From positions 1 through 64,000 of the IMG/VR virus record IMGVR_UViG_3300032245_001322: 64,000 nt of DNA. The stretch is one strand, 5' to 3'. Of this stretch, positions 25,975-47,431 are shown one piece after another (positions within the stretch are counted from its first letter, which is position 1; each line of letters starts with the position of its first letter). This DNA is from a virus. Below the pieces are notes generated by a model. That model worked only from the letters and a program-made list of their open reading frames with translations. It was not told the DNA's origin and made no database searches. Position numbers and translations under genes: made by a program.

Positions 25975-25980
25975 AACGAA

Positions 25981-27435: not shown

Positions 27436-28736
27436 TGGGATTTACTAAAGTAGACATATCTTCAGTCAAACCTAATAGTCAAACTATCTTATTTGATAGT
27501 TATTTTGACTATGTAGATTACATAAATGATTTAGTCCCTAAATTACAAGGGAATGCTCGGACTGTTTATGATTTGACATTTTCACGAACAACTCTTGAAA
27601 ATGATGCAAGAGATGAAAATTGGTTTGGTACTACAGACCTAAGTCAAGTAACAGACGATGTGACTACTTTTTTATTCAATAATGAATTAAGTCAAGAATT
27701 AGAAGCATTTGACAGACGTAATACAAATATTGAACAAATAGATTTAGAGCAAAAAAAGAAAATAACTTTTACTGCTCAAGAAATTGGAATTTTCTCTTTT
27801 GACCTTGCATCTTTAGGGCTTATTCCCGTAGTTGAATATTTTAGCCCACTATTAAATAGAATTGTTAGTGGCGATGAAGTTCGTTCTTATAAAACGGGTA
27901 ATGGGGATGTGGTTTTTTATCACATTTTCGTTGCCGAAATACCACAACACTATTTAAAACAAGAAAAAGGTAAATTGTTTTCTCCTATTTTAAATATTTT
28001 TGTCAATGAAAATAGTCCTTATGTTATTAAAGAAATAATTGATGGCAAATTTGAATTTATTCATTTAAAAGTAGAAGAAATTCCACGTCACGATGTTCAA
28101 CAAAGACAAGTTATTGGAGATAATGGATTGCCTAAATTTAGTTCTACTTGGAAAAAAAGTTTTATTTATATACCTCAAATTCCTTTTCAGTTACCTCAGA
28201 TAGATATTGTTATTCAAGTCAGTTACAATGCCTATATTCAAGCAAGAAACCAAATGTTTTGGACTTCTGTTGCGGTGAACGCTATTATTGAAAAATTAAG
28301 CAAATCTAATGTTAGATTTAGAATTTATGCAGGAGGTTCAACTTCTTGGGGAACGAACGGAACGAAAATAATAAGTAGTTTTATTAAACTAAAAGATTTA
28401 AACGACCCATTAAATATAAATACAACTTCAATTATTTCTGCTGATGCAAGAAATTTTAGGTATCAATTTTTTAAATACATTATAACTGCTTCTTATGATT
28501 TAGGATATGATGCAGATATTAATACAGGTTTGGGTAGGGCGATTAATGATGTTGATGTTACAAAAAGAAGTCTTATTGAAGCATTGAAAATAAGTAAAGA
28601 TTTTGGAAGTAGTCAAAACGATAGTTTAAATCCTAATACTAAAATTATAATCAATGCTTGTTTAAGTGAAGAAGAAGCCCAAGAGACATTTGATAGAGCG
28701 ATAAGACAAATTAAAAATTTAGAGCAAACGCCATGA
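27435..28736 (+). CDS. hypothetical protein (possible partner of the AAA+ ATPase)
   Basis: ORF immediately downstream with start/stop overlap. Confidence 0.5.
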   Translation: MGFTKVDISSVKPNSQTILFDSYFDYVDYINDLVPKLQGNARTVYDLTFSRTTLENDARDENWFGTTDLSQVTDDVTTFLFNNELSQELEAFDRRNTNIEQIDLEQKKKITFTAQEIGIFSFDLASLGLIPVVEYFSPLLNRIVSGDEVRSYKTGNGDVVFYHIFVAEIPQHYLKQEKGKLFSPILNIFVNENSPYVIKEIIDGKFEFIHLKVEEIPRHDVQQRQVIGDNGLPKFSSTWKKSFIYIPQIPFQLPQIDIVIQVSYNAYIQARNQMFWTSVAVNAIIEKLSKSNVRFRIYAGGSTSWGTNGTKIISSFIKLKDLNDPLNINTTSIISADARNFRYQFFKYIITASYDLGYDADINTGLGRAINDVDVTKRSLIEALKISKDFGSSQNDSLNPNTKIIINACLSEEEAQETFDRAIRQIKNLEQTP

Positions 28737-29035
28737 CAGATTTACAAAAATACAAAATAGAAAATTTAAGAAACGAGTATAACAATAATGTTAATGAATA
28801 CATAGGGTTTGGCTCTGAAAGGTATTGCTCTTTTGAAGTTAGAAAAAGTCTAAATGAGGAAGATAATAGTATAACTATTGTTTCAACTTTAATAGAAGAT
28901 TTATCTGAAGAAAACATTCCATTTACTAAACAAATATTTTATAATATTTTATTTGATGGTGAAGTAATAACTATGAATTTAGTTATGCCACAACCATTAA
29001 TTGCTAAATATATAAGTAACACAACACTAATATGA
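28733..29035 (+). CDS. hypothetical protein
   Basis: ORF. Confidence 0.5.
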   Translation: MTDLQKYKIENLRNEYNNNVNEYIGFGSERYCSFEVRKSLNEEDNSITIVSTLIEDLSEENIPFTKQIFYNILFDGEVITMNLVMPQPLIAKYISNTTLI

Positions 29036-29409
29036 TAAGATTTTTTAATTTTTTAAATATATCCGAAGAGGAACAAAATAAATTACCACAAGATATTCTT
29101 GATGGTGGCAAATTAATTGATGGAATGCAGTTAATTTATGAAGAAATAACAAATGAGCGTAAAAGAGATGTAATGGCTCATACTATTGCAGAAATGTCAA
29201 GTATTTTGTTAAAGCGTTTAAATGAATATAAATTAAATCCTAAAGCAAAAGAAAACATTGAAGAAGAAATAAAAGAAATTGAGCAGGTTCAAGATATTCA
29301 AGAAGTTCAAGTTGTCGAAACGCCACCAAGTGACGATGATAAAAATATTGATGAAAAAAGATTATTTTTGGAACATATTAGAAAAGACATTTTAGATATA
29401 GAATTTTAA
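29032..29409 (+). CDS. hypothetical acidic protein
   Basis: ORF. Confidence 0.5.
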   Translation: MIRFFNFLNISEEEQNKLPQDILDGGKLIDGMQLIYEEITNERKRDVMAHTIAEMSSILLKRLNEYKLNPKAKENIEEEIKEIEQVQDIQEVQVVETPPSDDDKNIDEKRLFLEHIRKDILDIEF

Positions 29410-29418
29410 AATAAAATT

Positions 29419-30216
29419 ATGAGACATACTACAAATACTTTATCCACTTTATACAGGTCTATTGACCAAACAAAGATTTCTGATAAAGCAAAGGAAACAT
29501 TAAAAAAATTGCGTTTAGCAACGGGTAATTTTGTTGGTAAAGACGAAGAAGCAAAACAATTATTTGTTGATTTTTTTAACAAGTTAAAAGAAAGTAAACC
29601 TATTGCCGTTAAGACAACTCCCGAATATAAAAAGGCTTTGAGAGATGCTCAAAGAGAGAGAGGTAAAGCCCTTGGCGAAAAAAGGAAACAGAAATCTAAA
29701 GAGCCCAAAGGTACAGGGAACGAAATTGACGCAAGTAGACCTGCAAAACCTTTTGGATGGAGAATGAGGGGTAAACATAATTACAAAAAACCTACAAGAG
29801 CAGACATTACAGAAGGAAGAGCGTATTACGAAGGACGTGTTAATCGTGCAGATGTAAAACGTAAAAAATATCCTATGTTAGAGCGTGGTGGCTATATGGC
29901 TGAAGGTGGTATGATTAACCATGGCTTTAGAAGTGGAGATAAAATCATTGAAATTTACAAAGGATATGGCATTATAGAATCAAAAGATATTGTTGAAGTA
30001 ATTGACCCTTCAAGAGGTTCTCGCTATGTTGTAGACCATGGAAATACTATGGACGAACAAATTGATGGTGCAAAAAGAATGATTGATAATATGACCCCTA
30101 TAGAACTTGTAGATAGAATTGAAATAGGAACAGATAGAAATGGTTCTATGGATAGACGTGGAGTTGAATATGCTAAAGGTGGAGTATTTTACACCGAAAA
30201 ACACAAAAAAGATTAA
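29419..30216 (+). CDS. basic protein with aromatic-x-GG repeats
   Basis: LERGGYMAEGGMINHG, YAKGGVFY. Lys/Arg-rich N-terminal half. Confidence 0.55.
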   Translation: MRHTTNTLSTLYRSIDQTKISDKAKETLKKLRLATGNFVGKDEEAKQLFVDFFNKLKESKPIAVKTTPEYKKALRDAQRERGKALGEKRKQKSKEPKGTGNEIDASRPAKPFGWRMRGKHNYKKPTRADITEGRAYYEGRVNRADVKRKKYPMLERGGYMAEGGMINHGFRSGDKIIEIYKGYGIIESKDIVEVIDPSRGSRYVVDHGNTMDEQIDGAKRMIDNMTPIELVDRIEIGTDRNGSMDRRGVEYAKGGVFYTEKHKKD

Positions 30217-31085
30217 TGATGAAGTTGTTTACAAAAGACATTGATAAAAAGTTATTTGCTCAATTCCCGAAAGGTGGGGATTTAGCAAATCAAAAGGTAA
30301 TTGCTAAAATATTTAATCCTTATGGTCGTGGAGTTTGGTATATAATTAATTCAGACCCCGATGACCCAGATTATTTATGGGCTATTGTTAACTTATTTGA
30401 AGTTGAAGTAGGGAGCGTTTCAAGAAAAGAACTTGAATCTTTAAGAATAAAGCCATTTATGTTGCCTTTAGAGAGAGATTTATCGTTTCGTGAAAGAAAT
30501 GCTTTAGAGGTATATAAAGGTGTACAAGGTGGCGAAAGATATGAGCATGGTGGGGAGTTAGAAATGGGTATCAAAAAAGAAATGGAAGAGCATGGTATGT
30601 CAAAAGAAGAGGCTACCAAAACGGCTATAGACCACTTGAGAGAAAATCCTAAATACTATACATTGCTTGAAAAATTCAAATTAGCAGGTGGTGGCGTAAC
30701 GAGAAAACATAAAATTACCTTGTATGAAAGTAAATTAATGGCTGAAGAAGGTAAACGAGTTTTAGTATCTCAAGATGGTCAACAATTTTATACTATTGAA
30801 GAAGGTGTCCTATACAAAACTGATGATGACTTAAATCATCAAGAAAAGTTTGATATGGATAAAATAAAGTTAATTATTTTACCTATGGAAAGTTATGAAA
30901 GTAAATTTGCAAAAGGTGGTTTAACATTTGATGAAAAAGTTAAAGCAGTTAAAAAATCATTAATGAGTAGAGATGTTCCTAAAAAATATCGAAATTTGTA
31001 TGGTAAAAAATACGATAAAGATGAAGCAGAGGAATCTGCTAAAAAAATTATTGGGGCACAAGTAAAAAAATACAACAAAAAATAA
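30216..31085 (+). CDS. protein with aromatic-x-GG repeats
   Basis: YEHGGELEMG, LAGGGVTRKH, FAKGGLTFDE. Confidence 0.55.
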   Translation: MMKLFTKDIDKKLFAQFPKGGDLANQKVIAKIFNPYGRGVWYIINSDPDDPDYLWAIVNLFEVEVGSVSRKELESLRIKPFMLPLERDLSFRERNALEVYKGVQGGERYEHGGELEMGIKKEMEEHGMSKEEATKTAIDHLRENPKYYTLLEKFKLAGGGVTRKHKITLYESKLMAEEGKRVLVSQDGQQFYTIEEGVLYKTDDDLNHQEKFDMDKIKLIILPMESYESKFAKGGLTFDEKVKAVKKSLMSRDVPKKYRNLYGKKYDKDEAEESAKKIIGAQVKKYNKK

Positions 31086-31097
31086 AAATAGGACAAC

Positions 31098-31598
31098 ATG
31101 GACAAAATTATTAAAGTTCTCAAACAGAACAAATTAAAAGAAAGTATGCTAAGTCAAGAGATTCAAACTTCTATTGAAAATCTTGAAAATTTAATTGTAA
31201 AGCATAATGCTGAAGTTGATGAATTGGACAATTCAGAAGAAGTAACTGAAGAACAAGAAAATCATATTGAGCAACAATCTCAATTAATTGATTCAACGGA
31301 AGCAAGTATTGTTTCTGCAATTGAAACTTTTTTAGAAGCAAAAGCAGATGCTGAAGCAAAAGCAAAAGAAGAAGCAGAGCAAAAAGCAAAAGACGAAGCC
31401 GATAAAAAGGCAAAAGAAGATGCTGATTCAAAAGCGAAAGCAGACTCAGAAGCAAAAGAAGAAGCCGATAGAAAGGCTAAAGAAGAATTAAACAAACCTA
31501 AACCAAAAGAGAAAAAAAGTGGATTAGGAATGTTTTTGTTGGGTGCAGTAGTACTTATTGCAACGGCAGGGGTAGTTAATGTAATGAATAAAAAATAA
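31098..31598 (+). CDS. coiled-coil repeat protein (KAKEEAD repeats) with C-terminal TM anchor
   Basis: AEAKAKEEAEQKAKDEADKKAKEDADSKAKADSEAKEEADRKAKEE, then GMFLLGAVVLIATAGVV. Confidence 0.55.
   Translation: MDKIIKVLKQNKLKESMLSQEIQTSIENLENLIVKHNAEVDELDNSEEVTEEQENHIEQQSQLIDSTEASIVSAIETFLEAKADAEAKAKEEAEQKAKDEADKKAKEDADSKAKADSEAKEEADRKAKEELNKPKPKEKKSGLGMFLLGAVVLIATAGVVNVMNKK
31330..31480 (+). repeat. imperfect 21-24-nt coding repeats (GCAAAAG[A/C]AGA[A/T]GC[T/C]GA...)
   Basis: Encodes KAKEEAD-type repeats. Confidence 0.5.
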
Positions 31599-31891
31599 TG
31601 GCTTATAAAATAACTGCATATACCAAATCACAAGCGAAAAAACTTGGCGTAGTAGTGAAGAATTCTTCGGTGAAAGGGAAGAAGATTGCAGTTATTAAAA
31701 ACGGCAAAAAAATAGCCGATGTAGGTGCATTAGGTTACAATGATTATCCCACTTTCCTTGAATTAGAAAAACAAGGCAAATTGCCAAAAGGTACTGCAAC
31801 CCAAAAAAGGAAAAATTATAAAAGTAGGCACGAGAAAGATAGGAAAGTCCCTAATTCTCGTGGCTACTATGCAGACAAACTTTTATGGTAG
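31598..31891 (+). CDS. hypothetical basic protein
   Basis: ORF. Confidence 0.5.
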   Translation: MAYKITAYTKSQAKKLGVVVKNSSVKGKKIAVIKNGKKIADVGALGYNDYPTFLELEKQGKLPKGTATQKRKNYKSRHEKDRKVPNSRGYYADKLLW

Positions 31892-32163
31892 TTAAAAAAG
31901 AGGATATGAAGTTACCGATTACATTTGAACAATTTAAAAAAAATCCTATCACGGCAGTTACATTTTGTATGCTAGTCGTAGTAGGTTACTTATATGTCGA
32001 CCAAAAGACAAGTGAGAAAGAGAGATTAACCGATTGTGCTACAGAAGTTAATGCACTAAAATCCGAGTTGAAAATTGTACAAAATAGACAACGAAAGAAT
32101 GATAGTGCTTTGGCAGTAGCCATGACTGAATTAAAGATTTTAACAAGATTAGGCAAAATATGA
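31885..32163 (+). CDS. membrane protein (one TM)
   Basis: Hydrophobic helix AVTFCMLVVVGYLYV. Confidence 0.5.
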   Translation: MVVKKEDMKLPITFEQFKKNPITAVTFCMLVVVGYLYVDQKTSEKERLTDCATEVNALKSELKIVQNRQRKNDSALAVAMTELKILTRLGKI

Positions 32164-32465
32164 AAAAATTAATTCCTTTGATATTTTTGATTGGATGTTC
32201 GCAGAAAGAAACACCAAAAAAATACGAACACGATGAAGTTATTATTCACGACACATTAATAGCGTCTTTTAGTGACGAAATTAAAAATATGAAGTCGGCT
32301 ATTGAAAATAAAAATCATTCAGTCAAAAGGTCTAAGGATTCGTTATCTAAGCAAATAAAAAAGTTACACGCTAAAAACAAACATCTTCAATATGAAAATG
32401 ATTTCTATTTAGATGCAATTGATGGATATAGCGATGTAATCATGCATAATGATACTATTAAATAA
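32160..32465 (+). CDS. lipoprotein
   Basis: MKKLIPLIFLIGC lipobox. Confidence 0.5.
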   Translation: MKKLIPLIFLIGCSQKETPKKYEHDEVIIHDTLIASFSDEIKNMKSAIENKNHSVKRSKDSLSKQIKKLHAKNKHLQYENDFYLDAIDGYSDVIMHNDTIK

Positions 32466-32486
32466 AAATGCTTAAATTTGTAAATC

Positions 32487-32633
32487 ATGAGTAGAAATTT
32501 TATTATAATCGGAAGTGTTTTAGCCGTGGCTATTGGAATAGGTTATTGGTATTATATCTCTAACCAAGAGAAAGATACGGAAGCAATAACTCCCGAAGAT
32601 AAAGAGGAATTAGAAAAAATTAAAATAGTTTAA
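32487..32633 (+). CDS. small TM protein (48 aa)
   Basis: Below track cutoff; hydrophobic IIIGSVLAVAIGIGYWYYI. Confidence 0.35.
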   Translation: MSRNFIIIGSVLAVAIGIGYWYYISNQEKDTEAITPEDKEELEKIKIV

Positions 32634-32634
32634 T

Positions 32635-33399
32635 ATGGCAAACATTGTTATACCTGCATTAAAAGAAGAATATAAAGTACCTGCAAACCAACCACCTTGG
32701 AAAATTCAGTCAATTGCGACTGTTAAAAAGGTAAAGGCTAATTATGGTAAAGTTCTTGAAGAAGCATCAAGTTATATTGGTGTGCCTTATGAATTAGTAG
32801 TTGGCTTTACTTCAACCGAGAGTGGTGGTGCAAAAAACGAAACTTTAAATGGTGGTGCAAAAGGTATTATGCAAGTCGAAGTAGGTACTGCATGGCAATG
32901 TTTATCAGACCAATTAAAAGTTGATACCTTGGGTAATTTTTATATTTTTTATAAACTTGCACCAAACTTATTTTCAATTAAAAAAACTATTCCAAATCCT
33001 TTAGGAAATGCAAGTAATGAAAAGGCTTCAGATTATTTAAAAATAAAACCTTTAAGTTCTGTATCAAGTTCCGTTGCAAAATATTTAACGACAAAAGATG
33101 CCAAATTTTCTGCCTACATAGGTTCTTTGGTATTAGGTCAAATGATTAACAAAACTTTGAAAAGTGTTGGTCAAATTAGACTTGACCATATTATCATTAA
33201 GTATAACGCAGGAACGGGTGCTTTTTCTAAAAATGTAACAAAAAAAGGGTTGGAAAAATCAAATGTTGATACAACGGGTATTTACAATAGTATTAAAACG
33301 AACTTCGCTCAAAGAAAATCTGAGGTTCTTCGTTCGTACTTAGTAAAAATGCTTGGTATTAATGGTTTTTTAGACGTTCAAAAACAAAAATTAGCATAA
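32635..33399 (+). CDS. lytic transglycosylase (SLT domain)
   Basis: FTSTESGGAKNE...GAKGIMQVEVGTA matches the SLT E-S ... GLMQ motif. Confidence 0.6.
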   Translation: MANIVIPALKEEYKVPANQPPWKIQSIATVKKVKANYGKVLEEASSYIGVPYELVVGFTSTESGGAKNETLNGGAKGIMQVEVGTAWQCLSDQLKVDTLGNFYIFYKLAPNLFSIKKTIPNPLGNASNEKASDYLKIKPLSSVSSSVAKYLTTKDAKFSAYIGSLVLGQMINKTLKSVGQIRLDHIIIKYNAGTGAFSKNVTKKGLEKSNVDTTGIYNSIKTNFAQRKSEVLRSYLVKMLGINGFLDVQKQKLA

Positions 33400-33400
33400 T

Positions 33401-33643
33401 ATGAATTTTTTCAGAAATATGGTTAGTTCTAAGGGTGATGTTTCTTCAAAGAGATTTCTTGGGGCTATTGGATTCATTTCTCTTATCCTTGCTATGTTTA
33501 TCACACTTTATGTTAAGTTTGATTTAGAAGTAGGTAAGAGATTAATTGAAGCCGTTGAATACATTTCTATTGCTTATGGTTTAGGTACTGTGGCAGAGAA
33601 ATTTGCAAATAAAAACGAAACAAATAATGAAATAATTAATTAA
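33401..33643 (+). CDS. small TM protein
   Basis: Hydrophobic helix. Confidence 0.5.
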   Translation: MNFFRNMVSSKGDVSSKRFLGAIGFISLILAMFITLYVKFDLEVGKRLIEAVEYISIAYGLGTVAEKFANKNETNNEIIN

Positions 33644-33645
33644 AT

Positions 33646-33762
33646 ATGGATACTAAAAAAATAGGTTTAGGTGGGATGTTATTCTCATTAGCCGTAGGAT
33701 TTGCGACTATCTATGCATTTGCATACGTTGCAGGTAAGGGTTGGAAAAAAGCAAATAGTTAA
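33646..33762 (+). CDS. small TM protein (38 aa)
   Basis: Below cutoff; hydrophobic. Confidence 0.3.
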   Translation: MDTKKIGLGGMLFSLAVGFATIYAFAYVAGKGWKKANS

Positions 33763-34244
33763 TGCAAGGGGTTTTTAAGGAAATATCGAGAGCGACTGAA
33801 GGGTCTTATGGTACTGCAATCATTTATGCAGGTGCTATTGGATTGATTCTATCTGACATTATTCCTACTCCTGCTGACGCTTTATATTTCTATACCGAAA
33901 AGAAACTTCGTGACCAATGGGTTGCTAAACAAATTACGCCAAAACAATATTGGATAAGGTCGGCATCGGCTTATTACTTATACAATCCTATTTGGTGGAC
34001 TTTGGTTTTAGGGGCTATGCACTACACCGAAGGCGACTTTAAACAAAAGGCTAAAATTGGCTTAATGGTTATTGGAGCAGGTGCAGTAATTGGTATGATT
34101 TATAGGAACTATAAAGTAGACATTCAACAAGTTAAAGAAGATGCTTTTGCAAAAGACACAAAAGTAAACTTTGATGCAAAACCAAGTACCAATCGAGTAA
34201 GAAGTGTTTACAGAGTTGGTAATAAAATTAAATTCACACAATAA
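33762..34244 (+). CDS. membrane protein
   Basis: Several hydrophobic segments. Confidence 0.5.
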   Translation: MQGVFKEISRATEGSYGTAIIYAGAIGLILSDIIPTPADALYFYTEKKLRDQWVAKQITPKQYWIRSASAYYLYNPIWWTLVLGAMHYTEGDFKQKAKIGLMVIGAGAVIGMIYRNYKVDIQQVKEDAFAKDTKVNFDAKPSTNRVRSVYRVGNKIKFTQ

Positions 34245-34597
34245 TGATAGACCCTAACGCAACACAACAAGTAGCAACAAATGGTGCAGGAGGTTCGCCA
34301 CAAGTGAACATCCCACCTATGGAAACACCAACACCATCTCAAGGTATGGCAGAAGGTGGTTCAACTGACAATAATACAATTGATACTTTAGAAGAAAATA
34401 CGGCTATGGATAGAACTCAATGGTTAACCATTTTTTTAATTGGTTTAACAATTGTATCCTTAGTCATGAGTATCGTTTCAAGTCGTAAACAGATTCAAAA
34501 ATTGGACAAAGATGATTCTGATATGAACAAAAAATTGAACGAACTCGAAACTAATTTAAGAAAACAAATGGGCGACAAGTATGAAGAGTTGGCTTGA
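34244..34597 (+). CDS. TM protein
   Basis: Central hydrophobic helix. Confidence 0.5.
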   Translation: MIDPNATQQVATNGAGGSPQVNIPPMETPTPSQGMAEGGSTDNNTIDTLEENTAMDRTQWLTIFLIGLTIVSLVMSIVSSRKQIQKLDKDDSDMNKKLNELETNLRKQMGDKYEELA

Positions 34598-35231
34598 CGA
34601 AGTCACATACGGAAATCCGAATGATATTTACTTGCCCTACTTGAAAAAAGGGGGCGAGTTTGAATCATTATATGAGGAATTTAAAAATTTTCCTTTCCCC
34701 TCTAATTCATCAGAGACAACCAAAGATGAAATAAGAGAACTATTGCATTATCAAAATAGCGAAAGTCAACAAAATGAAAAAATTGTTACTCGATATATTT
34801 CCTACGATGATGATTTAGCATCAATTTTAAAGCGTTATTGCGTTGAAAAAATTGGTCAAAACGAAGATGAACTTATTGATGATATTATTGAATCTACAAA
34901 AAGTTTAATCGCAAAATTAAAATTTCACTATCAACGACCAAGACCTTATCAGTTGGCACAATATTTAAAGGCTCGGTTATTCCCTTCAGCAAGTATGTCG
35001 GCATTGAATCCTTCATACCCAAGTGGACATACCTTACAAGCAAAACTTGTTTGTAGTGTTTTGGGAAACAAATACGTTGAACACAATGATTATTTACAAA
35101 AATTGGCACACGACATATCAGTTAGTAGATTGTTCTTAGGATTGCATTATTCAAGTGATAATGATTTTTCCTTAATTATTGCAGACAAAATACTAACAGA
35201 CAAAAACTTCACGAAAAAACATGGAATATGA
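34581..35231 (+). CDS. PAP2-family phosphatase
   Basis: Complete tripartite signature: KLKFHYQRP (K-x6-RP), PSGH, SRLFLGLHYSSD (SR-x5-H-x3-D). Confidence 0.7.
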   Translation: MKSWLDEVTYGNPNDIYLPYLKKGGEFESLYEEFKNFPFPSNSSETTKDEIRELLHYQNSESQQNEKIVTRYISYDDDLASILKRYCVEKIGQNEDELIDDIIESTKSLIAKLKFHYQRPRPYQLAQYLKARLFPSASMSALNPSYPSGHTLQAKLVCSVLGNKYVEHNDYLQKLAHDISVSRLFLGLHYSSDNDFSLIIADKILTDKNFTKKHGI

Positions 35232-35604
35232 ATTTTTAGTAACACCGATAGGTAAACCAAGAATGACCCAAAGGGACAAATGGTTAAAACCTCCAAGAGA
35301 AGCAGTTTTAAAATATAGACTGCATAAAAAAGCCATGGAAGATTACGCCATGATAACTAAGTTTAAATTAACGGAAATTTTAGATGTAGATTTTTACATT
35401 CCTATGCCCGAAAGTTGGAGCAAAAAGAAAAAAGAGTCTATGTGTGGTAAACCACATCAAAATAAACCCGACTTAGATAATATTTTAAAATTTATCATGG
35501 ATACGCTATTACCCGAAGGCGACCAAAATGTACACACTATTGTGGCTAAAAAAGTTTGGGATTACGAAGGCAAAATTATTTTTAGAGATGCAACCAACGA
35601 ATAA
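35221..35604 (+). CDS. rusA: RusA-like Holliday junction resolvase
   Basis: KPDLDNILKFIMDTL and GDQNVHTIVAKKVW resemble RusA RRDLDNLQKAAFDAL and DDAQVV-YRVVK. Confidence 0.65.
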   Translation: MEYEFLVTPIGKPRMTQRDKWLKPPREAVLKYRLHKKAMEDYAMITKFKLTEILDVDFYIPMPESWSKKKKESMCGKPHQNKPDLDNILKFIMDTLLPEGDQNVHTIVAKKVWDYEGKIIFRDATNE

Positions 35605-35617
35605 TGATAACAATCAA

Positions 35618-36040
35618 ATGGTTTCTAATCTATTAGAGACCATGGTTTCGACAATTAAAGAAATAGGAATATTAAATACTATTCTTGTTCTCGAAAATGG
35701 CAAAGATAAATCTAATAACTTTGAAAGAAAAGATATTTTGTGGGCTATAGAATGTGTATGTGCAGTATTCAATATGCCACCCGAAACACTCTTTTCACCA
35801 AGTAAAAAATATCCAAGAAAATATGCTTTTGGTATTTGGGCTTATCTATGTGATAAACACTTGCTTTATAGTCCTAAAGACCTTGCCAAAATAAGTGGTA
35901 AAAGTAGGGCTACAATTTACAAGTCAACTTGCTTTATTAGGAAATTCCCTAAATCAAGTACAAACGCTTTTGAGCAAAAAATTATTGAAAAAATTAACGA
36001 ATCAGAAAACAACTTAAAAATAAAATTAAACAAAAATTAA
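35618..36040 (+). CDS. hypothetical protein with DnaA-C-terminal-like HTH
   Basis: PRKYAFGIWAYLCDKHLLYSPKDLAKISGKSRATIYKS resembles DnaA domain IV. Start trimmed to in-frame ATG after the RusA stop. Confidence 0.35.
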   Translation: MVSNLLETMVSTIKEIGILNTILVLENGKDKSNNFERKDILWAIECVCAVFNMPPETLFSPSKKYPRKYAFGIWAYLCDKHLLYSPKDLAKISGKSRATIYKSTCFIRKFPKSSTNAFEQKIIEKINESENNLKIKLNKN

Positions 36041-36041
36041 T

Positions 36042-37049
36042 ATGGACAACAACGTAGGATTTAACGCTGAAGCAGAATTTGAAAATGACTTTTCACCACT
36101 ACAAGAAAATGTAGTTCAAAGAGATTATACAAGACCGAATGTATCGGGAATGGTAGATTCATCTCCTATTGAAGAAGCAGTCGTTATTCCACCAACTTTT
36201 GAAGATTTGAATAATTCATTTCAACAAAATTTAGGTGGTGCAGAAATGGAAGAACAACCAAGTGGCGATGGTAGAAAAGTTTGGGGCTCTGATGACGAAT
36301 CGGGAAGTGCAAACCCTTACACAGAGAATTTAGATAAAAAAGACCAAAAGAAAGCGTCCGAAGCACTTGTAGAAGCCGTTTTAGATGGCTACACTCAATT
36401 AAATGGTTTTGCTAACAAACTTATTCAATTCAATCCGAATAAGGTTCAGAAAATGATTAGCGAAGGGGAAATTGATGGTGGTTTAAGAATTCCAATTCAA
36501 GGTCAAACTATTGGAGTATTAGATTACATTAATGAATACAATAAACAAACCGAAGGAGTTATTAGTGTAAGTGATGAATTTAAAGACAAGGTAAGACCTG
36601 TAATGGTTCGTGTATTCCAAAAGAGAAATATTGGAATGACAGATGAGCAGTTATTGGCTTATTATTTTGGTGTGGATATTATTCAAAAAGGTGCTATGGT
36701 TTATCAATTAAGAGGTCAAAATGCTCAATTATTGGCACAACTTAAAGATATGAGTACGGGTTACACGCCACCACCACCACAAAGAGAACAAGCAAGGGAA
36801 GAAGCCCCACGCCAAGAACCACAACAAACAAATGAAGCCCCACAAAGGGAATATGTTGAACCCGATGAAGTAAAAAAAGAAAGTCCAAAAGAAGAATTCG
36901 TAGAAGTCGAAGTAGTTAAGGAAACACCTAAACGTGCTAAGAGACCTACAACCATGCCCGAATTTGGAAATGAATCTATTTTACAACACATGGAAGATAT
37001 AGCAAACGAAGGTAAACCAAGAACAAATACAAGAAGGAAAAGAAAATGA
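36042..37049 (+). CDS. hypothetical protein with basic C-terminus
   Basis: Ends KPRTNTRRKRK; Pro/Glu-rich segment. Confidence 0.55.
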   Translation: MDNNVGFNAEAEFENDFSPLQENVVQRDYTRPNVSGMVDSSPIEEAVVIPPTFEDLNNSFQQNLGGAEMEEQPSGDGRKVWGSDDESGSANPYTENLDKKDQKKASEALVEAVLDGYTQLNGFANKLIQFNPNKVQKMISEGEIDGGLRIPIQGQTIGVLDYINEYNKQTEGVISVSDEFKDKVRPVMVRVFQKRNIGMTDEQLLAYYFGVDIIQKGAMVYQLRGQNAQLLAQLKDMSTGYTPPPPQREQAREEAPRQEPQQTNEAPQREYVEPDEVKKESPKEEFVEVEVVKETPKRAKRPTTMPEFGNESILQHMEDIANEGKPRTNTRRKRK

Positions 37050-37861
37050 GAGAAGCAATGCTAGGTGTAGCCGTTGGTAAAAAAGGGGTTGGAAAATCCT
37101 TTACCACCAACAAAATGATTCAATCTTATGTAACGGGGAATTTAGCAAGTGGCATACTTCCCCGAAGGGCTTTGATATTAGATGTTAATGATGAATTTTC
37201 TCACATTAAATCAATTGCAATGAAAGACTTAGTGAGATTTTCTGTACACCCTATTGTTGAAGCAAGAAGAATTAGACCTTTTCATGAGAATGGTAAAAAG
37301 ATGACCTTGGACGATATTGCCAAGACGCTTTTTATCATTCTTGAAACATATAGAGGTGGGTTGTTGTTAATTGAAGATATTAATAAATACATATCAGACG
37401 CTTTACCAAATGACGTTATTGGTGCAATTTGTACAAATAGGCATACGGATATGGACATTATCATGCACTTTCAATCTATTGGACGTATTAGCCCAAAAAT
37501 TTGGCAAAACATGAATTGGATTAGATTCCATAAAAATTTGGATTCAGTTGGTCGTCACGCTAAAAAGTTTGAAGACAAATATGAACTACTTCGAATTGTG
37601 GAAATGTTAACCGATAATGAATACAATAGTGGGAATAAAAGATTCTTCCAATATGTAGATATGGACGAGATGAAAATAGTAGGTAAAATAGATGATAAAA
37701 AACTTGACTTTGCTATTCGTCAATACATAGAAGAAAACTATCGTAAAATAATTACCCCTTTATTACAAATAAAAGGGTCAAATGGTAAAAACAAATACAC
37801 AACTGATAGTGCATTGAAATCTGAATACAATAGAATCAAAAATCTTTACACTAATTCATAA
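37046..37861 (+). CDS. small P-loop ATPase (candidate packaging ATPase of A32/PRD1-P9 type, or ParA-like)
   Basis: Walker A GVAVGKKGVGKS; Walker B-like GGLLLIEDI. 271 aa, directly upstream of putative major structural protein. Confidence 0.5.
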   Translation: MREAMLGVAVGKKGVGKSFTTNKMIQSYVTGNLASGILPRRALILDVNDEFSHIKSIAMKDLVRFSVHPIVEARRIRPFHENGKKMTLDDIAKTLFIILETYRGGLLLIEDINKYISDALPNDVIGAICTNRHTDMDIIMHFQSIGRISPKIWQNMNWIRFHKNLDSVGRHAKKFEDKYELLRIVEMLTDNEYNSGNKRFFQYVDMDEMKIVGKIDDKKLDFAIRQYIEENYRKIITPLLQIKGSNGKNKYTTDSALKSEYNRIKNLYTNS

Positions 37862-38029
37862 TTTGTAAATAATTGATTTTCTTGTTATTGGAAATTAAAT
37901 TCTAACATAGTTAAACATTCATAGGAATTTAAGAAATGCGTAGCAAACTTATTATCAATAATAAAAAATAATTTTGAAATAGTTAAGACCTCTGAAGGTG
38001 CTTGACAAGAAAAAAATAGAAATATAGAA

Positions 38030-38137
38030 ATGGAAAAGGTAAAAGAATTTTTATTATCGGTAGGAGTTATCGTTGTTGGTGTCCTTGTTGCCAACCAAGT
38101 GCAAAAAGCAATTGACAAAAACAAGACTACAATTTAA
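38030..38137 (+). CDS. small TM protein (35 aa)
   Basis: Below cutoff; LLSVGVIVVGVLVA. Confidence 0.3.
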   Translation: MEKVKEFLLSVGVIVVGVLVANQVQKAIDKNKTTI

Positions 38138-38170
38138 ACAAACAAACAAAAATTTTAAAAAAACAAAATT

Positions 38171-38869
38171 ATGAGTATTAGAAAATATTTAGCCGATGCA
38201 CAAAGAAATGCAAACGAAGGCTTCGCAAACGCAGACGGATTTTTTGACGATGATTTGTCATTCACCGCTTCTGATGACTTTTATGGTGCTGATGCATCAT
38301 CAATGGGTGCTCCAAGTGCTCCAACTTCACAACCTTACATCGTAACAATTACTAACACAGGTTCTGCCGTTAATAATTTTGACGTATTAGGTTCATTTGA
38401 ATACATTAACAATAATGGCTTCAATGCAAGTGGTAACTTGGTAATTGGTAACGTAACGATTAGTTCTGCTATTCCAAACGTAACTTACCAACAAATGTTA
38501 TGGCAGTTCCAAAGCGTACCTTATAGCGTAGGTTTGACTTATATCCAATCTGCAACTGCAAATCAGTTGTTGGAGACTTTGTCAATCAACACTAAAGATG
38601 CGAATGGTAACATTGCACAAAAAGCGTTAATCCCAACTCTTGACCCATATCAGCAACAATCAACTGTGTTGGCTATGCGTTATGGCTATAGAATTGATGG
38701 TTACACCAAAATCATCCTTTCTTCTGTTTTAGCATCTACAACTGTTAAATTGTACTTGTACCCAAGTGACAACATTAACATGGCTCGTGGATTAAGTGGT
38801 AAAGCAGTTGCTCGTGATTTCGCATCACCAGGCATTGTACGTTCACAACCTGTTAAATTGGTAGGTTAA
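38171..38869 (+). CDS. putative major virion structural (capsid) protein
   Basis: 232-aa beta-rich protein followed by the strongest rho-independent terminator in the window. Positioned after an ATPase and before a membrane-protein run. Confidence 0.4.
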   Translation: MSIRKYLADAQRNANEGFANADGFFDDDLSFTASDDFYGADASSMGAPSAPTSQPYIVTITNTGSAVNNFDVLGSFEYINNNGFNASGNLVIGNVTISSAIPNVTYQQMLWQFQSVPYSVGLTYIQSATANQLLETLSINTKDANGNIAQKALIPTLDPYQQQSTVLAMRYGYRIDGYTKIILSSVLASTTVKLYLYPSDNINMARGLSGKAVARDFASPGIVRSQPVKLVG

Positions 38870-38892
38870 TCCTAACAATTGACTTTATAAAA

Positions 38893-38926
38893 AGGGTGGG
38901 GTGTTATCGCCCTACCCTTTTTTTTT
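38893..38926 (+). terminator. strong rho-independent terminator after putative major structural gene
   Basis: GGGTGGGGTGTTATCGCCCTACCC followed by T9. Confidence 0.75.
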
Positions 38927-38950
38927 ATCACATAAAAAAGAATTAAAACG

Positions 38951-39346
38951 ATGTATGAATATATAGCAATAAACAATCCGTATGGAGCAATGTCCGTGTT
39001 AAAATCTTATGGATTAAAAATTAGGGATAAAAGAAACCTTGGTTCGGCTTTACGCAAGTTGGTTGCCCAAGAAGGAGAACCTGCATTACGCAAGATTGCA
39101 GATTTACATCCCGATAAAGAATTAATCATGGATGTATATTCAAACGCAGACGGAGGTTGTAATTGTGGATGTCAAAACAAATCAAGTATGGGTCAAGACC
39201 TTAAATACAATTTTGTTGGAGCAGACGCAAGTACTTCAGTAAGTAACAACCAAGTAAGTGAATCTACTAAATTAGCAATGCAAACAAATGCATTTTTAAT
39301 TGTAGCAACAATAATCATCGCATCAGCAATAATCACAAGAAAATGA
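38951..39346 (+). CDS. C-terminally TM-anchored protein
   Basis: C-terminal helix AFLIVATIIIASAII; shares the FVGADAST motif. Confidence 0.5.
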   Translation: MYEYIAINNPYGAMSVLKSYGLKIRDKRNLGSALRKLVAQEGEPALRKIADLHPDKELIMDVYSNADGGCNCGCQNKSSMGQDLKYNFVGADASTSVSNNQVSESTKLAMQTNAFLIVATIIIASAIITRK

Positions 39347-39903
39347 AACAATTAACAGATAAAGAAGTTTTTTTAGTTGCAGTAGCAACTATTGACAAAA
39401 AGAAACCCGAAGTAATCGCATTGATTAACAAGTATGGTATCAAATTATCACCAAGTGCCGATTTAAAAACTATTGATTCGGCTTTTTTAACTTTGGCTAA
39501 AACGAGCAACAATTTTAGAAAAGAATTTTCTGATTTGTCAGCACAAGCATCTGCATCTTTTACAGGTGACAATGGCTTTTTTGGAGCAGACGCAACACCA
39601 AGTACTTCTACAACTACTTCTACTTCAAGTGGGGGCTTTTTAAGTAAACTTGGTGAATATCTTAGTCCCGATGTTTTCAAATCAATTGTTAACACAGGTT
39701 TAAATGTTTGGTCAGTTAAACAAACAGGTCAAAATGCACCAACTGCTCAAGGGGCTATGGATTCTGCAAGAGAAACTTATTACCAACAACAAGGCACTCA
39801 ATCTTCTGAAAAATCGGGCATGGGTGTAGGTAGCATTATTCTTTTGTCTGTAGGTGGTCTTTTGCTTTTAGGTGGTATTATTTATTTCGTAAGAAAAAAG
39901 TAA
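39343..39903 (+). CDS. C-terminally TM-anchored protein
   Basis: C-terminal GVGSIILLSVGGLLLLGGIIYFV; FFGADATPST motif. Confidence 0.5.
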   Translation: MKQLTDKEVFLVAVATIDKKKPEVIALINKYGIKLSPSADLKTIDSAFLTLAKTSNNFRKEFSDLSAQASASFTGDNGFFGADATPSTSTTTSTSSGGFLSKLGEYLSPDVFKSIVNTGLNVWSVKQTGQNAPTAQGAMDSARETYYQQQGTQSSEKSGMGVGSIILLSVGGLLLLGGIIYFVRKK

Positions 39904-39904
39904 T

Positions 39905-40021
39905 ATGGATGAGGTAAAATTTAAAGAATTAGAAACCAAAGTAAATATGCTTTACAATACGCACAAAGTTGCGATTATTGTTTTGGCAGTTGCTTTAGGA
40001 GTATATCTAATAAAAAAGTAA
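39905..40021 (+). CDS. small TM protein (38 aa)
   Basis: Below cutoff. Confidence 0.3.
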   Translation: MDEVKFKELETKVNMLYNTHKVAIIVLAVALGVYLIKK

Positions 40022-40025
40022 ACCT

Positions 40026-40250
40026 ATGAATGAATTTGAAGATGCATTAGATAACGTAAAAAGCATTAAGGAAACAAATAATCATGATTCTTTTATGTCA
40101 ACTGCTAAACAAACCATAAAAGGAAGTGCAGTTGGTGCTATTGCAGGTTTGATGTTCGCATGGTACAAACAAAAAAATCTCTACGTTTATGGCTTTTTAG
40201 GGGCTATAGGTGGTGGAGCAATTAACTATTTTTTAATAGGGAAAAAATGA
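40026..40250 (+). CDS. small TM protein
   Basis: Gly-rich hydrophobic helices. Confidence 0.5.
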   Translation: MNEFEDALDNVKSIKETNNHDSFMSTAKQTIKGSAVGAIAGLMFAWYKQKNLYVYGFLGAIGGGAINYFLIGKK

Positions 40251-40447
40251 AAACAGAACACATAATTACAGGAATAGTAGTTTTAGGCATAGCCTATTTA
40301 ATTTTCAAGCCTAAAAATGACAAGGTTCTTGATACTGCAAAAGTAACCGAGGAGAGTACATTGTCGTTTGACGCTATTGACGATTCTATGGCAGATATGT
40401 CACAAAAGAATATTTTCAAAAGTAAAGCAAGATTTAATTTAAGATAA
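40247..40447 (+). CDS. small N-terminally TM-anchored protein
   Basis: ATGA overlap. Confidence 0.5.
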   Translation: MKTEHIITGIVVLGIAYLIFKPKNDKVLDTAKVTEESTLSFDAIDDSMADMSQKNIFKSKARFNLR

Positions 40448-40448
40448 A

Positions 40449-41054
40449 ATGAAAACTATAACAAAAGTAGCATTAGTAGTCGGTGGATTAATTATTGCAA
40501 ATAAATTATTGTCAAAGCCAAAAGGAACAACAACTGCAACCGAAGAAGGTGAAGAACCCACTTCGGGTGGTGGTGGAGGTGGTGGATTTCCAATAATTCC
40601 TGCTTTAGGAATACCAATTTTACCTTTAGGTATTCCGATTAGTAAAACAGAAGAACAAATAAAGGCTGAAGCAGATGCAAAAATTAAAGCAGAAGCCGAA
40701 GCAAAAGCAAAAGCCGTTTTGGATAGCGTTCAACAAAAAATAAAAGATATGCAAAAGGCAACTGCTACAACAACTGTGACTCCTGCTTCGGGCACTATTG
40801 GAGACCAATTAGGCATAGGAACAACTTCTGGAACTTCTACGGGAGCAACCACGGGAACTTCTACGGGAACAACTACGGGAACTTCTACGGGAACAACTAC
40901 GGGAACTTCTACGGGTGGTATCTTAGGAGGAACGGGTACAACAACAACTTCGGGGTCAACAGTAACTCGTATGGGTGCTCCAACTCCAATTGGAGGGGTA
41001 ATTCCTTTTGATGGAACAATTGAAACATTAAGACGAAAACCAAATTTTAGATAA
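40449..41054 (+). CDS. N-TM protein with KAEAEAKAKA coiled-coil and (GTSTGTTT)n repeats
   Basis: Tandem 24-nt repeats at 40823..40916 encode a Gly/Thr/Ser-rich segment. Confidence 0.55.
   Translation: MKTITKVALVVGGLIIANKLLSKPKGTTTATEEGEEPTSGGGGGGGFPIIPALGIPILPLGIPISKTEEQIKAEADAKIKAEAEAKAKAVLDSVQQKIKDMQKATATTTVTPASGTIGDQLGIGTTSGTSTGATTGTSTGTTTGTSTGTTTGTSTGGILGGTGTTTTSGSTVTRMGAPTPIGGVIPFDGTIETLRRKPNFR
40823..40916 (+). repeat. in-frame tandem 24-nt repeat (ACGGGAACTTCTACGGGAACAACT, about 3.5 copies)
   Basis: Direct reading; encodes (GTSTGTTT)n. Confidence 0.7.
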
Positions 41055-41641
41055 TGGAAAGTAAAAACATAATTATTGGGGTTGGCGTTTTAGCCATTGG
41101 TGGGTATTTAGCATATAAATACTTTAAAAAGCCTACGGGTCAAGAAAATGAAAATTCTGAAAACGAAAGTGCTAATTCAACAAAAAATCAAACTGCTCAA
41201 GAAGTAACATCTCAAGGATTAAAATTGGGAGAAACTAAAGAAAAAATTCAAGAAGTTGCAGATGTTAAACCATCATCAAGTACGACAACTATGGCAGGTG
41301 GAAATACCCCTGTTAAAGGCATTACTATTGACCCAAATAAAATATCTTCTTCAAAAGCACCTTTTGTAAATGCAAAAATTATGAAAGATATTAACAAGAA
41401 AATTTTAACAGGTCAAATAGTTCCTTTGTTTAAAAAAGGAGATATTGTTAGTGTTGCAAATACTTTTGGAGATTCAACTGAAACTTATGTTGAAGGCAAT
41501 ACATCATTAAAATTAAAATGGGATGTTGATGTATATTTCCCAAGAAGTGGAAGTAAAATAAATACTGCAAGTGGAGTAGGTGGAGCACCTCAATTTGATG
41601 GTGGCAAAACCAAAGGACATAATTTCCCTTATTTTTATTAA
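41054..41641 (+). CDS. N-terminally TM-anchored protein
   Basis: Hydrophobic N-terminus. Confidence 0.5.
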   Translation: MESKNIIIGVGVLAIGGYLAYKYFKKPTGQENENSENESANSTKNQTAQEVTSQGLKLGETKEKIQEVADVKPSSSTTTMAGGNTPVKGITIDPNKISSSKAPFVNAKIMKDINKKILTGQIVPLFKKGDIVSVANTFGDSTETYVEGNTSLKLKWDVDVYFPRSGSKINTASGVGGAPQFDGGKTKGHNFPYFY

Positions 41642-41650
41642 TTTTACAAA

Positions 41651-41908
41651 ATGATTAGTGCTAATAAAATATATAAAGAAAGTGGTTCTTCTTTGCCTTT
41701 TAAAGATTGGTTGGAGAGAGAAAAGAATAAAGGACATTTTATTCCTAACGCTCAAGCATTAAAAGAATTCCAAAATTTTGATGGTGAAGAAAGCACGGAA
41801 ACAAATATCAAAGGCGAATTTATCGGAAGCAATGTAATGAGAAATACTTTGATTGTTTTAGGTTTAGGAATTGGAATATATTTATTTTATAAATTACAGA
41901 CACAATGA
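41651..41908 (+). CDS. C-terminally TM-anchored protein
   Basis: Hydrophobic C-terminus. Confidence 0.5.
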   Translation: MISANKIYKESGSSLPFKDWLEREKNKGHFIPNAQALKEFQNFDGEESTETNIKGEFIGSNVMRNTLIVLGLGIGIYLFYKLQTQ

Positions 41909-42126
41909 GTTTAACAAATAAGCAATTAGCATGTATTGGTATTGGAATTATTTGCGTAATTATTATTTATGCAAATAGGGGAAATTTGCCACTTCCTAAA
42001 GAGCCATTAAATGCTGATGGTGATGGTGTTAACGCAATTGATAAAGCAATTGCACTATTAAAGAGTGGGCAAATTAAAGTAAATGAAATGCCCGATAACG
42101 TAAAGCAACAATTGAATGAAGTATAA
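41905..42126 (+). CDS. N-terminally TM-anchored protein
   Basis: Hydrophobic N-terminus. Confidence 0.5.
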   Translation: MSLTNKQLACIGIGIICVIIIYANRGNLPLPKEPLNADGDGVNAIDKAIALLKSGQIKVNEMPDNVKQQLNEV

Positions 42127-42901: not shown

Positions 42902-42908
42902 GTAAAAA

Positions 42909-43358
42909 ATGGTAGTAACAACTTGGAATGTAGTTCCCGATTATGATGCTTGGGGTTCAGATACTTCTTGGACTTGTGACAATTGGATTCAATGGCACAA
43001 AGAACTAAAGAAGCGTTTTGGTGGTGATAAAGCCAATGCTATTTGGAACTATGCATATTCACTTCAAAGTGATGGTGCAAGAGCATTAGATTGCAGAACA
43101 TTTAACACGGCATTTAGGAAATATATGACTGAGGAATCATTAGACCCGTATGCGAGTGCAGGAGTTTTTGCATTAGTTTTAAAACCAATTGGTGCAGGTA
43201 CGGATTTAGTAGATTCGGCTTCAAATTTGATTACGAATATTGGTCAAGGAATTAGTGGTTTTTTTAGTGGAAACATGATTAAAACCATCGTAACAATTGG
43301 TGTAGTTGGAGTTGTTGGATATTATGGTTACAAGTTTTATAAATCTACACAATCATGA
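42909..43358 (+). CDS. C-terminally TM-anchored protein
   Basis: Hydrophobic C-terminus. Confidence 0.5.
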   Translation: MVVTTWNVVPDYDAWGSDTSWTCDNWIQWHKELKKRFGGDKANAIWNYAYSLQSDGARALDCRTFNTAFRKYMTEESLDPYASAGVFALVLKPIGAGTDLVDSASNLITNIGQGISGFFSGNMIKTIVTIGVVGVVGYYGYKFYKSTQS

Positions 43359-44450: not shown

Positions 44451-44451
44451 A

Positions 44452-45851: not shown

Positions 45852-45852
45852 A

Positions 45853-46356: not shown

Positions 46357-46357
46357 A

Positions 46358-46924: not shown

Positions 46925-46938
46925 CATATTTTTGTAAT

Positions 46939-47325: not shown

Positions 47326-47431
47326 TTATATTTTTATATAATTTTTACCTAAAATAACACTTATTGTTTTTATTGATTTTAAAGTATAAATTTGCGTAAG
47401 CCCAAAAGGGCTTAAATGTTTATTGTTAAAA

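Follow-up and report, generated by a model that had tools for sequence, protein, structure and literature searches.

The open reading frame (ORF) described here encodes a protein of 216 amino acids (aa) and lies in IMG/VR virus record IMGVR_UViG_3300032245_001322, of which positions 1 to 64,000 were analyzed as one stretch of 64,000 nt, termed the window. An earlier note, made from the letters of the sequence, had proposed that this ORF is a virus-encoded PAP2 phosphatase with a complete catalytic signature, and the ORF was recovered on the plus strand with exactly the boundaries given there (Table 1). The search for Pfam PAP2 (PF01569) suggested in the note passed the gathering cut-off (E=4e-9; 36.8 bits versus 27.2), with residues 111-201 of the protein aligned to profile positions 17-114 of 130. 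Using phmmer against all PDB chains, the best match was the acid phosphatase 7F18 of Pseudomonas aeruginosa (E=1.6e-8), and further matches, down to E=2.7e-4, were the enzymes of Escherichia blattae and Shigella, PhoN, PhoC and KpAP. All three PAP2 motifs are present in canonical order, i.e., K-x6-RP, PSGH (residues 147-150) and SRLFLGLHYSSD (residues 182-193). K114, R121 and P122 align with the catalytic Lys, Arg and Pro of 7f18 and 1iw8, P147-H150 are the same as in the SYPSGHT of solved acid phosphatases, and S182, R183, H189 and D193 align with motif 3 of these enzymes. The complete signature claimed in the note is thus present, and every signature residue falls on a PAP2 catalytic position, where the note had named a misalignment as grounds for dropping its claim.

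The local sequence KLKFHYQRPRP fits K-x6-RP in two registers, starting either from K112 or from K114. The alignments with the P. aeruginosa and E. blattae enzymes and the conservation in the family identify the K114 register as the homologous one. In an alignment of the protein with 129 full-length family representatives at 50% identity (130 sequences in total), K114 is found in 124, R121 in 128 and P122 in 129 sequences. Accordingly, the note was right about the presence of the motif, but the string it quoted (K112...R119-P120) is two residues out of register. Judged from the sequence, the motif match is far beyond chance. On the profile, motifs 1-3 and the helical fold, all of the defining features examined, the protein belongs to the PAP2 superfamily.

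The AlphaFold2 model of the protein, based on 43 homologs, is all-helical, with a predicted local distance difference test (pLDDT) value of 92.9 and a predicted template modelling (pTM) score of 0.90. In a Foldseek comparison with the PDB, the top 25 matches are class A non-specific acid phosphatases (E=1e-5 to 6e-4; TM-scores of approx. 0.55-0.67) and the top 27 are all PAP2 phosphatases. The first integral-membrane PAP2 enzyme in this ranking is PgpB of B. subtilis (5JKI; rank 26, E=9e-4), and vanadium haloperoxidases begin at rank 28. The Kyte-Doolittle mean over 19 residues peaks at 0.54 and no transmembrane segment is found. Thus, the note's absence of transmembrane helices is borne out by hydropathy, and its soluble, class A-like character by hydropathy together with the top Foldseek matches.

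Known PAP2 enzymes are of two kinds, acid phosphatases of the periplasm and lipid phosphatases integral to the membrane. Class A acid phosphatases (7F17/7F18, Salmonella PhoN 2A96/2AKC, PhoC 9QCJ, E. blattae 1D2T/1EOI) are closest to the viral protein both in sequence (E=1.6e-8) and in fold (Foldseek E=1e-5, TM-score approx. 0.65). They share its all-helical soluble fold and, in their mature form, approximately its length; the K, R, P, the PSGH and the SR-H-D elements all align, and with 216 aa and no transmembrane helix the viral protein is of the approx. 25 kDa type. Of the PROSITE pattern G-S-Y-P-S-G-H-[TA], which we take to be the class A signature, the viral N-P-S-Y-P-S-G-H-T matches seven of eight positions, with P for the first G. 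However, identity over the fold is only 17-22%, and the N-terminal 95 residues of the viral protein carry the family-specific Y-G-N-P (approx. residues 10-13), S44 and E50. The NCBIfam PhoC equivalog NF045654 scores 25.1 bits against a cut-off of 430. Unlike the class A enzymes, the protein is virus-encoded and leaderless, and many members of its family have no catalytic histidines. Hence it differs from class A in the ortholog-level profile as well as in the signal peptide and periplasmic location. Integral-membrane PAP2 lipid phosphatases (PgpB 5JKI/8BM3, BcrC, LpxE 6EBU) have the same three motifs and the same core helices. Enzymes of this type have 4-6 transmembrane helices and act on the lipids named in the earlier note, whereas the viral protein has no such helix and matches them weakly (phmmer E=1.2 for 5jki and 0.67 for 6ebu; Foldseek rank 49 for 6ebu; NCBIfam PgpB E=0.0093). 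PAP2-superfamily proteins are also encoded by giant eukaryotic viruses (Mimiviridae and relatives; BFVD). Most of these carry lipid-handling or transmembrane annotations (dolichyldiphosphatase, sphingomyelin-synthase-like) and are weak fold matches (E>=0.01); close matches are limited to two unnamed BFVD entries, A0A1B1IV46 (E=1.3e-7, target TM-score 0.89) and A0A516M0A2. We conclude that the viral protein is neither an integral-membrane lipid phosphatase nor a haloperoxidase, and that it is class A-like but not a class A ortholog.

The N-terminus bears on where such a protein could act. Neither an N-terminal hydrophobic stretch nor a signal peptide is present in the 216-aa protein, and only two of 148 family representatives have a signal-peptide-like hydrophobic N-terminus. 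Direct reading of the N-terminus showed no lipoprotein or Tat motif, although no dedicated scan was run for these. Homologs share the protein start M-x-(L)-D-x-(I/V)-x-Y-G-N-P, and the start codon is well supported, since the homolog alignments begin at residue 1. Without a signal peptide the protein is made in the cytoplasm, and with neither a transmembrane helix nor a signal peptide the periplasm is out of reach by the Sec route. The protein would therefore need to act at the cytoplasmic face, to be carried in the virion or to exit through holin lesions.

A profile search of 1.84 billion representatives (50% identity) returned 170 homologs at E<1e-30 and 1354 at E<1e-10. The PAP2 family forms 401 clusters at 90% identity and occurs in at least 585 IMG/VR viral contigs. 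The window has an IMG/VR relative with 93% identity, and this relative and the gene content of the window (RecT, PD-(D/E)XK nuclease, RusA, Phg_2220_C, HNH endonucleases, peptidoglycan hydrolases, a polyvalent ART protein, tRNAs) mark the element as virus-like, in agreement with the virus-encoded gene of the note. Cluster members include Tara Oceans sequences, and the lineage is both marine and freshwater. A few copies are found in metagenome-assembled genomes (MAGs) labelled Pelagibacter, Vicingaceae, Sediminibacterium or Planktophila, which probably came there through binning of viral contigs. Among GenBank phages, tblastn with the PAP2 protein found only two records of Acinetobacter phage MD-2021a, annotated as BcrC, at 46% coverage and 33% identity. 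The PHROGs search gave two weak families of no assigned function (E=0.015 and 0.36), which indicates that cultured-phage families hold no counterpart. A plasmid origin was considered and rejected, as tblastn against plasmids detected only distant cellular PAP2 genes (<=35% identity). The literature search found no report on phage PAP2 proteins or on class A acid phosphatases in phages. The carriers form a very large, very abundant and wholly uncultured virus-like lineage from aquatic habitats, and PAP2 is one of its conserved core genes.

The gene has a fixed place in this lineage. It closes a run of small membrane-protein genes behind a peptidoglycan hydrolase in every case, and runs of single-transmembrane ORFs lie upstream of it in all relatives examined. 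The shared order is peptidoglycan hydrolase, small single-transmembrane run, PAP2, RusA, helix-turn-helix (HTH) protein, 335-aa protein, ATPase and 232-aa protein, and it is maintained from 93% down to 34% PAP2 identity where contigs are long enough. The note had placed the gene within a structural/membrane-protein region, and the membrane part of this description holds, as a membrane-protein-rich block adjoins PAP2. Occupants of single slots vary. The position of the SLT-like gene is taken by an SLT homolog in many loci and by Amidase_2 in one (L002), and that of RusA by DUF1064 in L019 and by other small proteins in distant relatives. The 117-aa membrane-protein gene, the last 17 nt of which overlap the PAP2 start, is kept upstream of PAP2 in relatives. 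No strong terminator was found within 33.4-37.9 kb, and considering the overlaps on both sides, PAP2 is probably co-expressed with its neighbors. A further small ORF (35 aa, transmembrane) lies between the ATPase and the 232-aa gene. The latter encodes a candidate major structural protein. A role as a DNA-end phosphatase working with RusA was rejected, because RusA is replaced or absent in distant syntenic relatives in which PAP2 stays. In summary, PAP2 is a fixed-position core gene and not a sporadic metabolic pick-up.

Table 1. Features of the window and PAP2 copies in related viral contigs (coordinates of the latter refer to the named locus).
Feature	Coordinates	Strand	Remarks
PAP2-superfamily ORF	34581-35231	+	216 aa, leaderless, soluble, class A acid-phosphatase-like fold; ATG at 34581, stop ends 35231
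PAP2 motif 1, homologous register	34920-34946	+	K114-x6-R121-P122 (KFHYQRPRP); aligned to 7f18, 1iw8
PAP2 motif 2	35019-35030	+	P147-S148-G149-H150; H150 predicted general acid, from alignment
PAP2 motif 3	35124-35159	+	S182-R183-x5-H189-x3-D193; H189 predicted nucleophile, D193 predicted charge relay, from alignment
254-aa protein	32635-33399	+	weak SLT lytic-transglycosylase match; Pfam SLT E=9.7e-5, 22.4 bits versus cut-off 21.3
Three small membrane-protein ORFs	33401-34244	+	80, 38 and 160 aa; in the run ending at PAP2
117-aa single-pass membrane protein	34244-34597	+	transmembrane segment from approx. residue 61, then basic coiled C-terminal tail
RusA Holliday-junction resolvase	35221-35604	+	Pfam RusA E=1.4e-13; start overlaps PAP2 stop by 11 nt
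170-aa DnaA_C-like HTH protein and 335-aa acidic Pro/Glu-rich protein	35528-37049	+	conserved downstream partners
271-aa P-loop ATPase	37046-37861	+	Walker A GKKGVGKS, Walker B LLLIEDIN; weak HerA/DUF87 similarity
232-aa beta-sandwich protein	38171-38869	+	most conserved gene of the lineage (>1000 clusters)
Intrinsic-terminator-like hairpin	38889-38922	+	15-bp stem and T run, directly after the 232-aa gene
tRNA-Leu (AAG) and tRNA-Met	8-82 and 1929-2000	-	
PG-binding-domain protein	2290-2916	-	wall-related
SPFH/Band 7 protein	3164-3952	-	near the tRNA genes
Sugar-modification cluster	11326-18733	+	
866-aa ORF	19186-21786	+	
Effector-like block	22280-31085	+	
261-aa protein	42116-42901		
FlgJ-type glucosaminidase	46358-46924	+	wall-related; predicted C-terminal transmembrane anchor from approx. 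residue 166
RecT recombinase and PD-(D/E)XK (DUF3799-like) nuclease	49226-50971	-	phage-type recombination module
763-aa protein	55318-57609	+	seven DUF285 (BspA-like) repeats
M23 peptidase	60595-61101	+	wall-related
PAP2 copy, L018	83-730		family survey locus
PAP2 copy, L070	5001-5636		family survey locus
PAP2 copy, L019	74-724		family survey locus
PAP2 family set, P0287-P0434			family survey
PAP2 fusion, L079 (114-kb contig)	3885-5690		601 aa, C-terminal PAP2; Gly/Ala-rich hydrophobic middle
PAP2 fusion, L086	4887-7175		762 aa, N-terminal PAP2; no annotated neighbor
PAP2 fusion, L096 (190-kb contig)	4191-7007		938 aa, central PAP2, one transmembrane segment
PAP2 fusion, L098	4875-6068		397 aa
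PAP2 fusion, L017	1451-5593		1380 aa
PAP2 fusions, P0426, P0431, L074			1080-1380 aa; Lys/Glu-rich remainder
PAP2 fusion, P0422			PAP2 and DUF5872
PAP2 fusions, P0421, P0429			PAP2 and C-terminal extension
Stand-alone PAP2, L071			trypsin-like peptidase downstream

The catalytic histidines are not kept throughout the family. Within the 130 aligned sequences, both H150 and H189 are present in 73, including the protein of the window, and both are lost in 31; 19 sequences have lost only H189, mostly to Asn or Cys, and seven only H150. One or both are consequently replaced in 57 sequences (44%), and family-wide retention amounts to 92 for H150, 80 for H189 and 127 for D193. The histidine-deficient set nevertheless keeps K114 (51 of 57), R121 (55), P147 (57), R183 (44) and D193 (54). 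A neighbor-joining tree requires at least 17 changes of the histidine state, a count which is approximate for such divergent sequences, and the losses lie on many separate branches. Histidine-less copies also occupy this position in the conserved gene order: in L018, PAP2 is followed by a 145-aa ORF, the 335-aa homolog and the ATPase, and in L070 it is preceded by an SLT homolog and followed by the 335-aa homolog, the ATPase and the 232-aa homolog. Relatives at 42-92% identity have an invariant H150 and a H189 conserved to at least 90%, and neither of the histidines nor the Asp is missing from the window protein or from any sampled relative above approx. 40% identity; catalysis thus appears to be under selection in the subclade of the window. 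Judging by these residues, what is common to the whole family is the phosphate-binding pocket, with hydrolysis apparently kept in the window's subclade and open to loss elsewhere. Phosphate binding may matter more than cutting.

In unrelated viral contigs, PAP2 domains with 31-39% identity occur either stand-alone or inside larger proteins of 397-1380 aa (Table 1). Their partners are hydrophobic, coiled-coil or Lys/Glu-rich regions, DUF5872 and a HAD-like domain; the latter was assigned in P0421 from a HAD-type DFDDT motif alone, with no Pfam match. The L096 protein directly follows a protein with SLT and PG_binding_1 domains (3229-4191), and its part outside PAP2 matches the megaphage records LR756501-3. 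Downstream of the L079 gene, ribonucleotide reductase-like and primase-like genes were recognized from their translations only. The neighbors of the L017 fusion and the context of Phage NCTB yielded nothing interpretable. By analogy, the fusions and the repeated wall-enzyme neighborhood are reminiscent of ejection or polyvalent proteins delivered with the virion (Iyer et al., 2017; PMC5512222). Homologous PAP2 domains sit in multidomain viral proteins of 400-1400 aa, whereas the window protein is stand-alone, and ART-PolyVal and DUF2958 proteins are encoded a few kb upstream of it in the window. Neither "PAP2" nor "phosphatase" turned up when the text of that survey was searched.

Taken together, we tentatively propose, with a probability of roughly 45%, that the PAP2 protein belongs to the membrane module of the virus and works at the surface of a membrane or of the envelope, where it would bind, and in the case of the window protein also hydrolyze, the phosphate head group of a lipid or envelope precursor. 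This reading is favored by the fixed place of the gene at the end of a membrane-protein run behind a wall hydrolase, by the recurrence of the same neighborhood in unrelated viruses and by the retention of the phosphate pocket in relatives that have lost the histidines. The two-histidine mechanism of PAP2 enzymes is established for the E. blattae acid phosphatase and its relatives. If the viral protein follows it, the phosphate would be bound by K114, R121, S148, G149 and R183 and attacked by H189, giving a phospho-histidine; the leaving group would receive its proton from H150, and D193 would relay charge to H189. Candidate substrates would be phosphomonoester or pyrophosphate head groups, e.g., of phosphatidic acid, phosphatidylglycerophosphate (PGP), lysophosphatidic acid, undecaprenyl pyrophosphate (C55-PP) or lipid A. 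The protein might act on these at the cytoplasmic face during assembly of the viral membrane proteins or, alternatively, after carriage in the virion. Several points weigh against our proposal. The closest solved relatives are soluble enzymes working on nucleotides and sugar phosphates and not on lipids, the known phosphatases for lipid A, C55-PP and PGP are integral-membrane proteins and match far more weakly, and the fusion of some relatives to a HAD-like phosphatase domain (DFDDT motif only) points to soluble substrates. Association with the virion is something we only infer. Further, since 57 of 130 family members do not have the full histidine pair, syntenic orthologs among them, hydrolysis is not universally conserved, and any reading that takes it as the conserved function becomes less convincing.

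The same observations can be arranged differently. With class A non-specific acid phosphatases (P. aeruginosa, Salmonella PhoN, PhoC, E. blattae) as nearest relatives and no leader to take it out of the cytoplasm, the protein could be a cytoplasmic broad-specificity phosphomonoesterase or pyrophosphate-dependent phosphotransferase acting on nucleotides and sugar phosphates. It would then be an auxiliary metabolic gene for phosphate scavenging or for reshaping nucleotide pools in oligotrophic aquatic hosts, which would suit the marine and freshwater lineage with its Tara Oceans members and Pelagibacter- or Vicingaceae-labelled MAG copies, as well as the C-terminal extensions of P0421 and P0429 with the HAD-type motif in the former. 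However, a core gene in fixed position beside membrane and morphogenesis genes is not sporadic, and the repeated loss of histidines while the gene is kept is hard to square with a purely metabolic role; we regard this explanation as unlikely. That loss, in turn, is what would be expected of a mainly non-catalytic, phosphate-binding structural or adaptor protein, linking for instance the viral membrane to the capsid or genome, for which hydrolysis would be ancestral and dispensable. The numbers of sequences without both histidines (31), H189 (19) or H150 (7), the at least 17 state changes, the predominant retention of K114, R121, R183 and D193 in the 57 deficient sequences and the histidine-less copies in the syntenic slot of L018 and L070 all fit such a protein. 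Both histidines and the Asp are nonetheless retained in the window protein and in every sampled relative above approx. 40% identity, and a place of the protein in the virion is hypothetical; for the window an adaptor seems quite unlikely.

The earlier note had envisaged dephosphorylation of lipid A, C55-PP or phosphatidic acid during entry or assembly, or a change in the charge of the host envelope. Spelled out, the enzyme would act in the periplasm or at the outer membrane on lipid A, C55-PP or other envelope phosphates and alter charge or stability of the envelope, either at entry, after ejection from the virion, or at lysis, after release through holin lesions. Cellular class A acid phosphatases are periplasmic and work there, a peptidoglycan hydrolase is encoded upstream in the window and in relatives (in L096, the SLT and PG_binding_1 protein directly precedes PAP2), and the fusions of 600-1400 aa, with their hydrophobic or coiled-coil stretches, look like internal proteins that are ejected. 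Nevertheless, we consider this scenario improbable: a signal-peptide-like N-terminus is missing from 146 of 148 family members, the enzymes known for these lipids are polytopic membrane proteins, packaging into the virion is hypothetical, and histidine-less relatives could not alter envelope charge. The PAP2 active site is also shared by vanadium-dependent haloperoxidases, which have the same active-site architecture and derive from the PAP2 fold, and haloperoxidase-like chemistry would account for weak matches in phmmer and Foldseek and for faint precomputed matches of homologs to PF22778 (VCPO_2nd). Known haloperoxidases, however, are two-domain proteins of >400 aa, 2-3 times larger and with an extra helical domain. 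Their matches to the 216-aa protein are marginal (phmmer E>=0.51 versus 1.6e-8 for acid phosphatases; Foldseek rank 28 or lower, target TM-score <=0.37), the phosphatase-type aspartate of motif 3 is present, and the protein itself does not match PF22778 even at E<=10. On size and match strength, this chemistry was rejected as extremely improbable.

The window also gives pointers to the kind of virus it represents. Its GC content is 30% throughout, and it encodes two tRNAs. Megablast of 30-40 kb against 50,697 GenBank phage records gave no match, and neither did tblastn against the same phages with the ATPase, the 232-aa and the 261-aa proteins; for the latter two, the search was negative even at E<=0.1. 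A PDB sequence search with the ATPase and profile searches with the ATPase and the 232-aa protein returned nothing meaningful. Several homologs of the ATPase share its weak HerA/DUF87 similarity. In the late region (31090-49120, plus strand), 23 of 41 ORFs of >=35 aa (56%) have a transmembrane segment. The corresponding share is 0-22% for the remaining coding blocks of the window and 12% for antisense ORFs within 31.1-49.1 kb. Such packing of small membrane proteins is typical of internal-membrane viruses and unusual for tailed phages. Moreover, the scan of approx. 70 ORFs of the window, including all those of >=250 aa, recognized neither a terminase or portal nor an HK97-type capsid or tail protein.

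The share of transmembrane ORFs, the HerA-like ATPase beside the 232-aa protein and the terminator, the absence of a recognized tailed-phage hallmark and the three proteins without GenBank phage relatives point to an undescribed lineage of large dsDNA viruses (approx. 65-95 kb), abundant in marine and fresh waters, that would be non-tailed and contain an internal membrane, and in which PAP2 would be a conserved factor handling lipid phosphates. At the site of viral membrane formation, active PAP2 versions might then remodel the head groups of phospholipids or polyprenyl phosphates or mark them, and histidine-less versions would only bind such head groups as membrane adaptors. We regard this lineage assignment as doubtful: the ATPase has one weak PHROG match to a large terminase family, and the genome may be incomplete. 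Literature searches on non-tailed marine virus groups and on vSAG 37-F6 did not bring up the PAP2 lineage. Should the assignment be true, PAP2 would be the first candidate viral factor handling lipid phosphates in phage membrane biogenesis.

The domain call itself is not new, as NCBI labels a few MAG copies "phosphatase PAP2 family protein". New are a leaderless, virus-specific PAP2 clade as a core gene, its fixed tie to membrane-protein genes and the widespread loss of the catalytic histidines. The family offers a natural case of an enzyme turning into a binding protein within one viral gene slot, and one small soluble protein is a cheap experimental handle on viral effects on host lipids and envelope precursors.

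Besides the PAP2 region, several other parts of the window could be annotated. A 67,082-nt contig of the Joint Genome Institute (JGI) is identical to positions 52822-64000 and runs 3.1 kb further (L101 11180-14297); this extension holds only small ORFs, one of them with a RyR domain, and its end shows no overlap with the start of the window. The sugar-modification cluster comprises a GT2 glycosyltransferase, an HNH endonuclease, a WDGH-domain protein, an NDP-sugar 4,6-dehydratase, an RNase_T-type exonuclease, an FkbM methyltransferase and a sugar C-methyltransferase. It is followed by the 866-aa ORF, the N-terminal part of which matches a phage glycosyltransferase family and which is interrupted by an intein with LAGLIDADG homing-endonuclease domains. 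The effector-like block encodes a 786-aa ART-PolyVal ADP-ribosyltransferase protein, a 446-aa protein of no assigned function, a MoxR/CobS-like AAA+ ATPase, a DUF7192 protein and a protein with DUF2958 and DUF5661; at the equivalent position, relatives have RelA_SpoT, ArdA, DUF5824 or DUF5872. The 763-aa protein with DUF285 repeats, whose internal DNA repeats are approx. 84% identical, is a possible host-binding protein.

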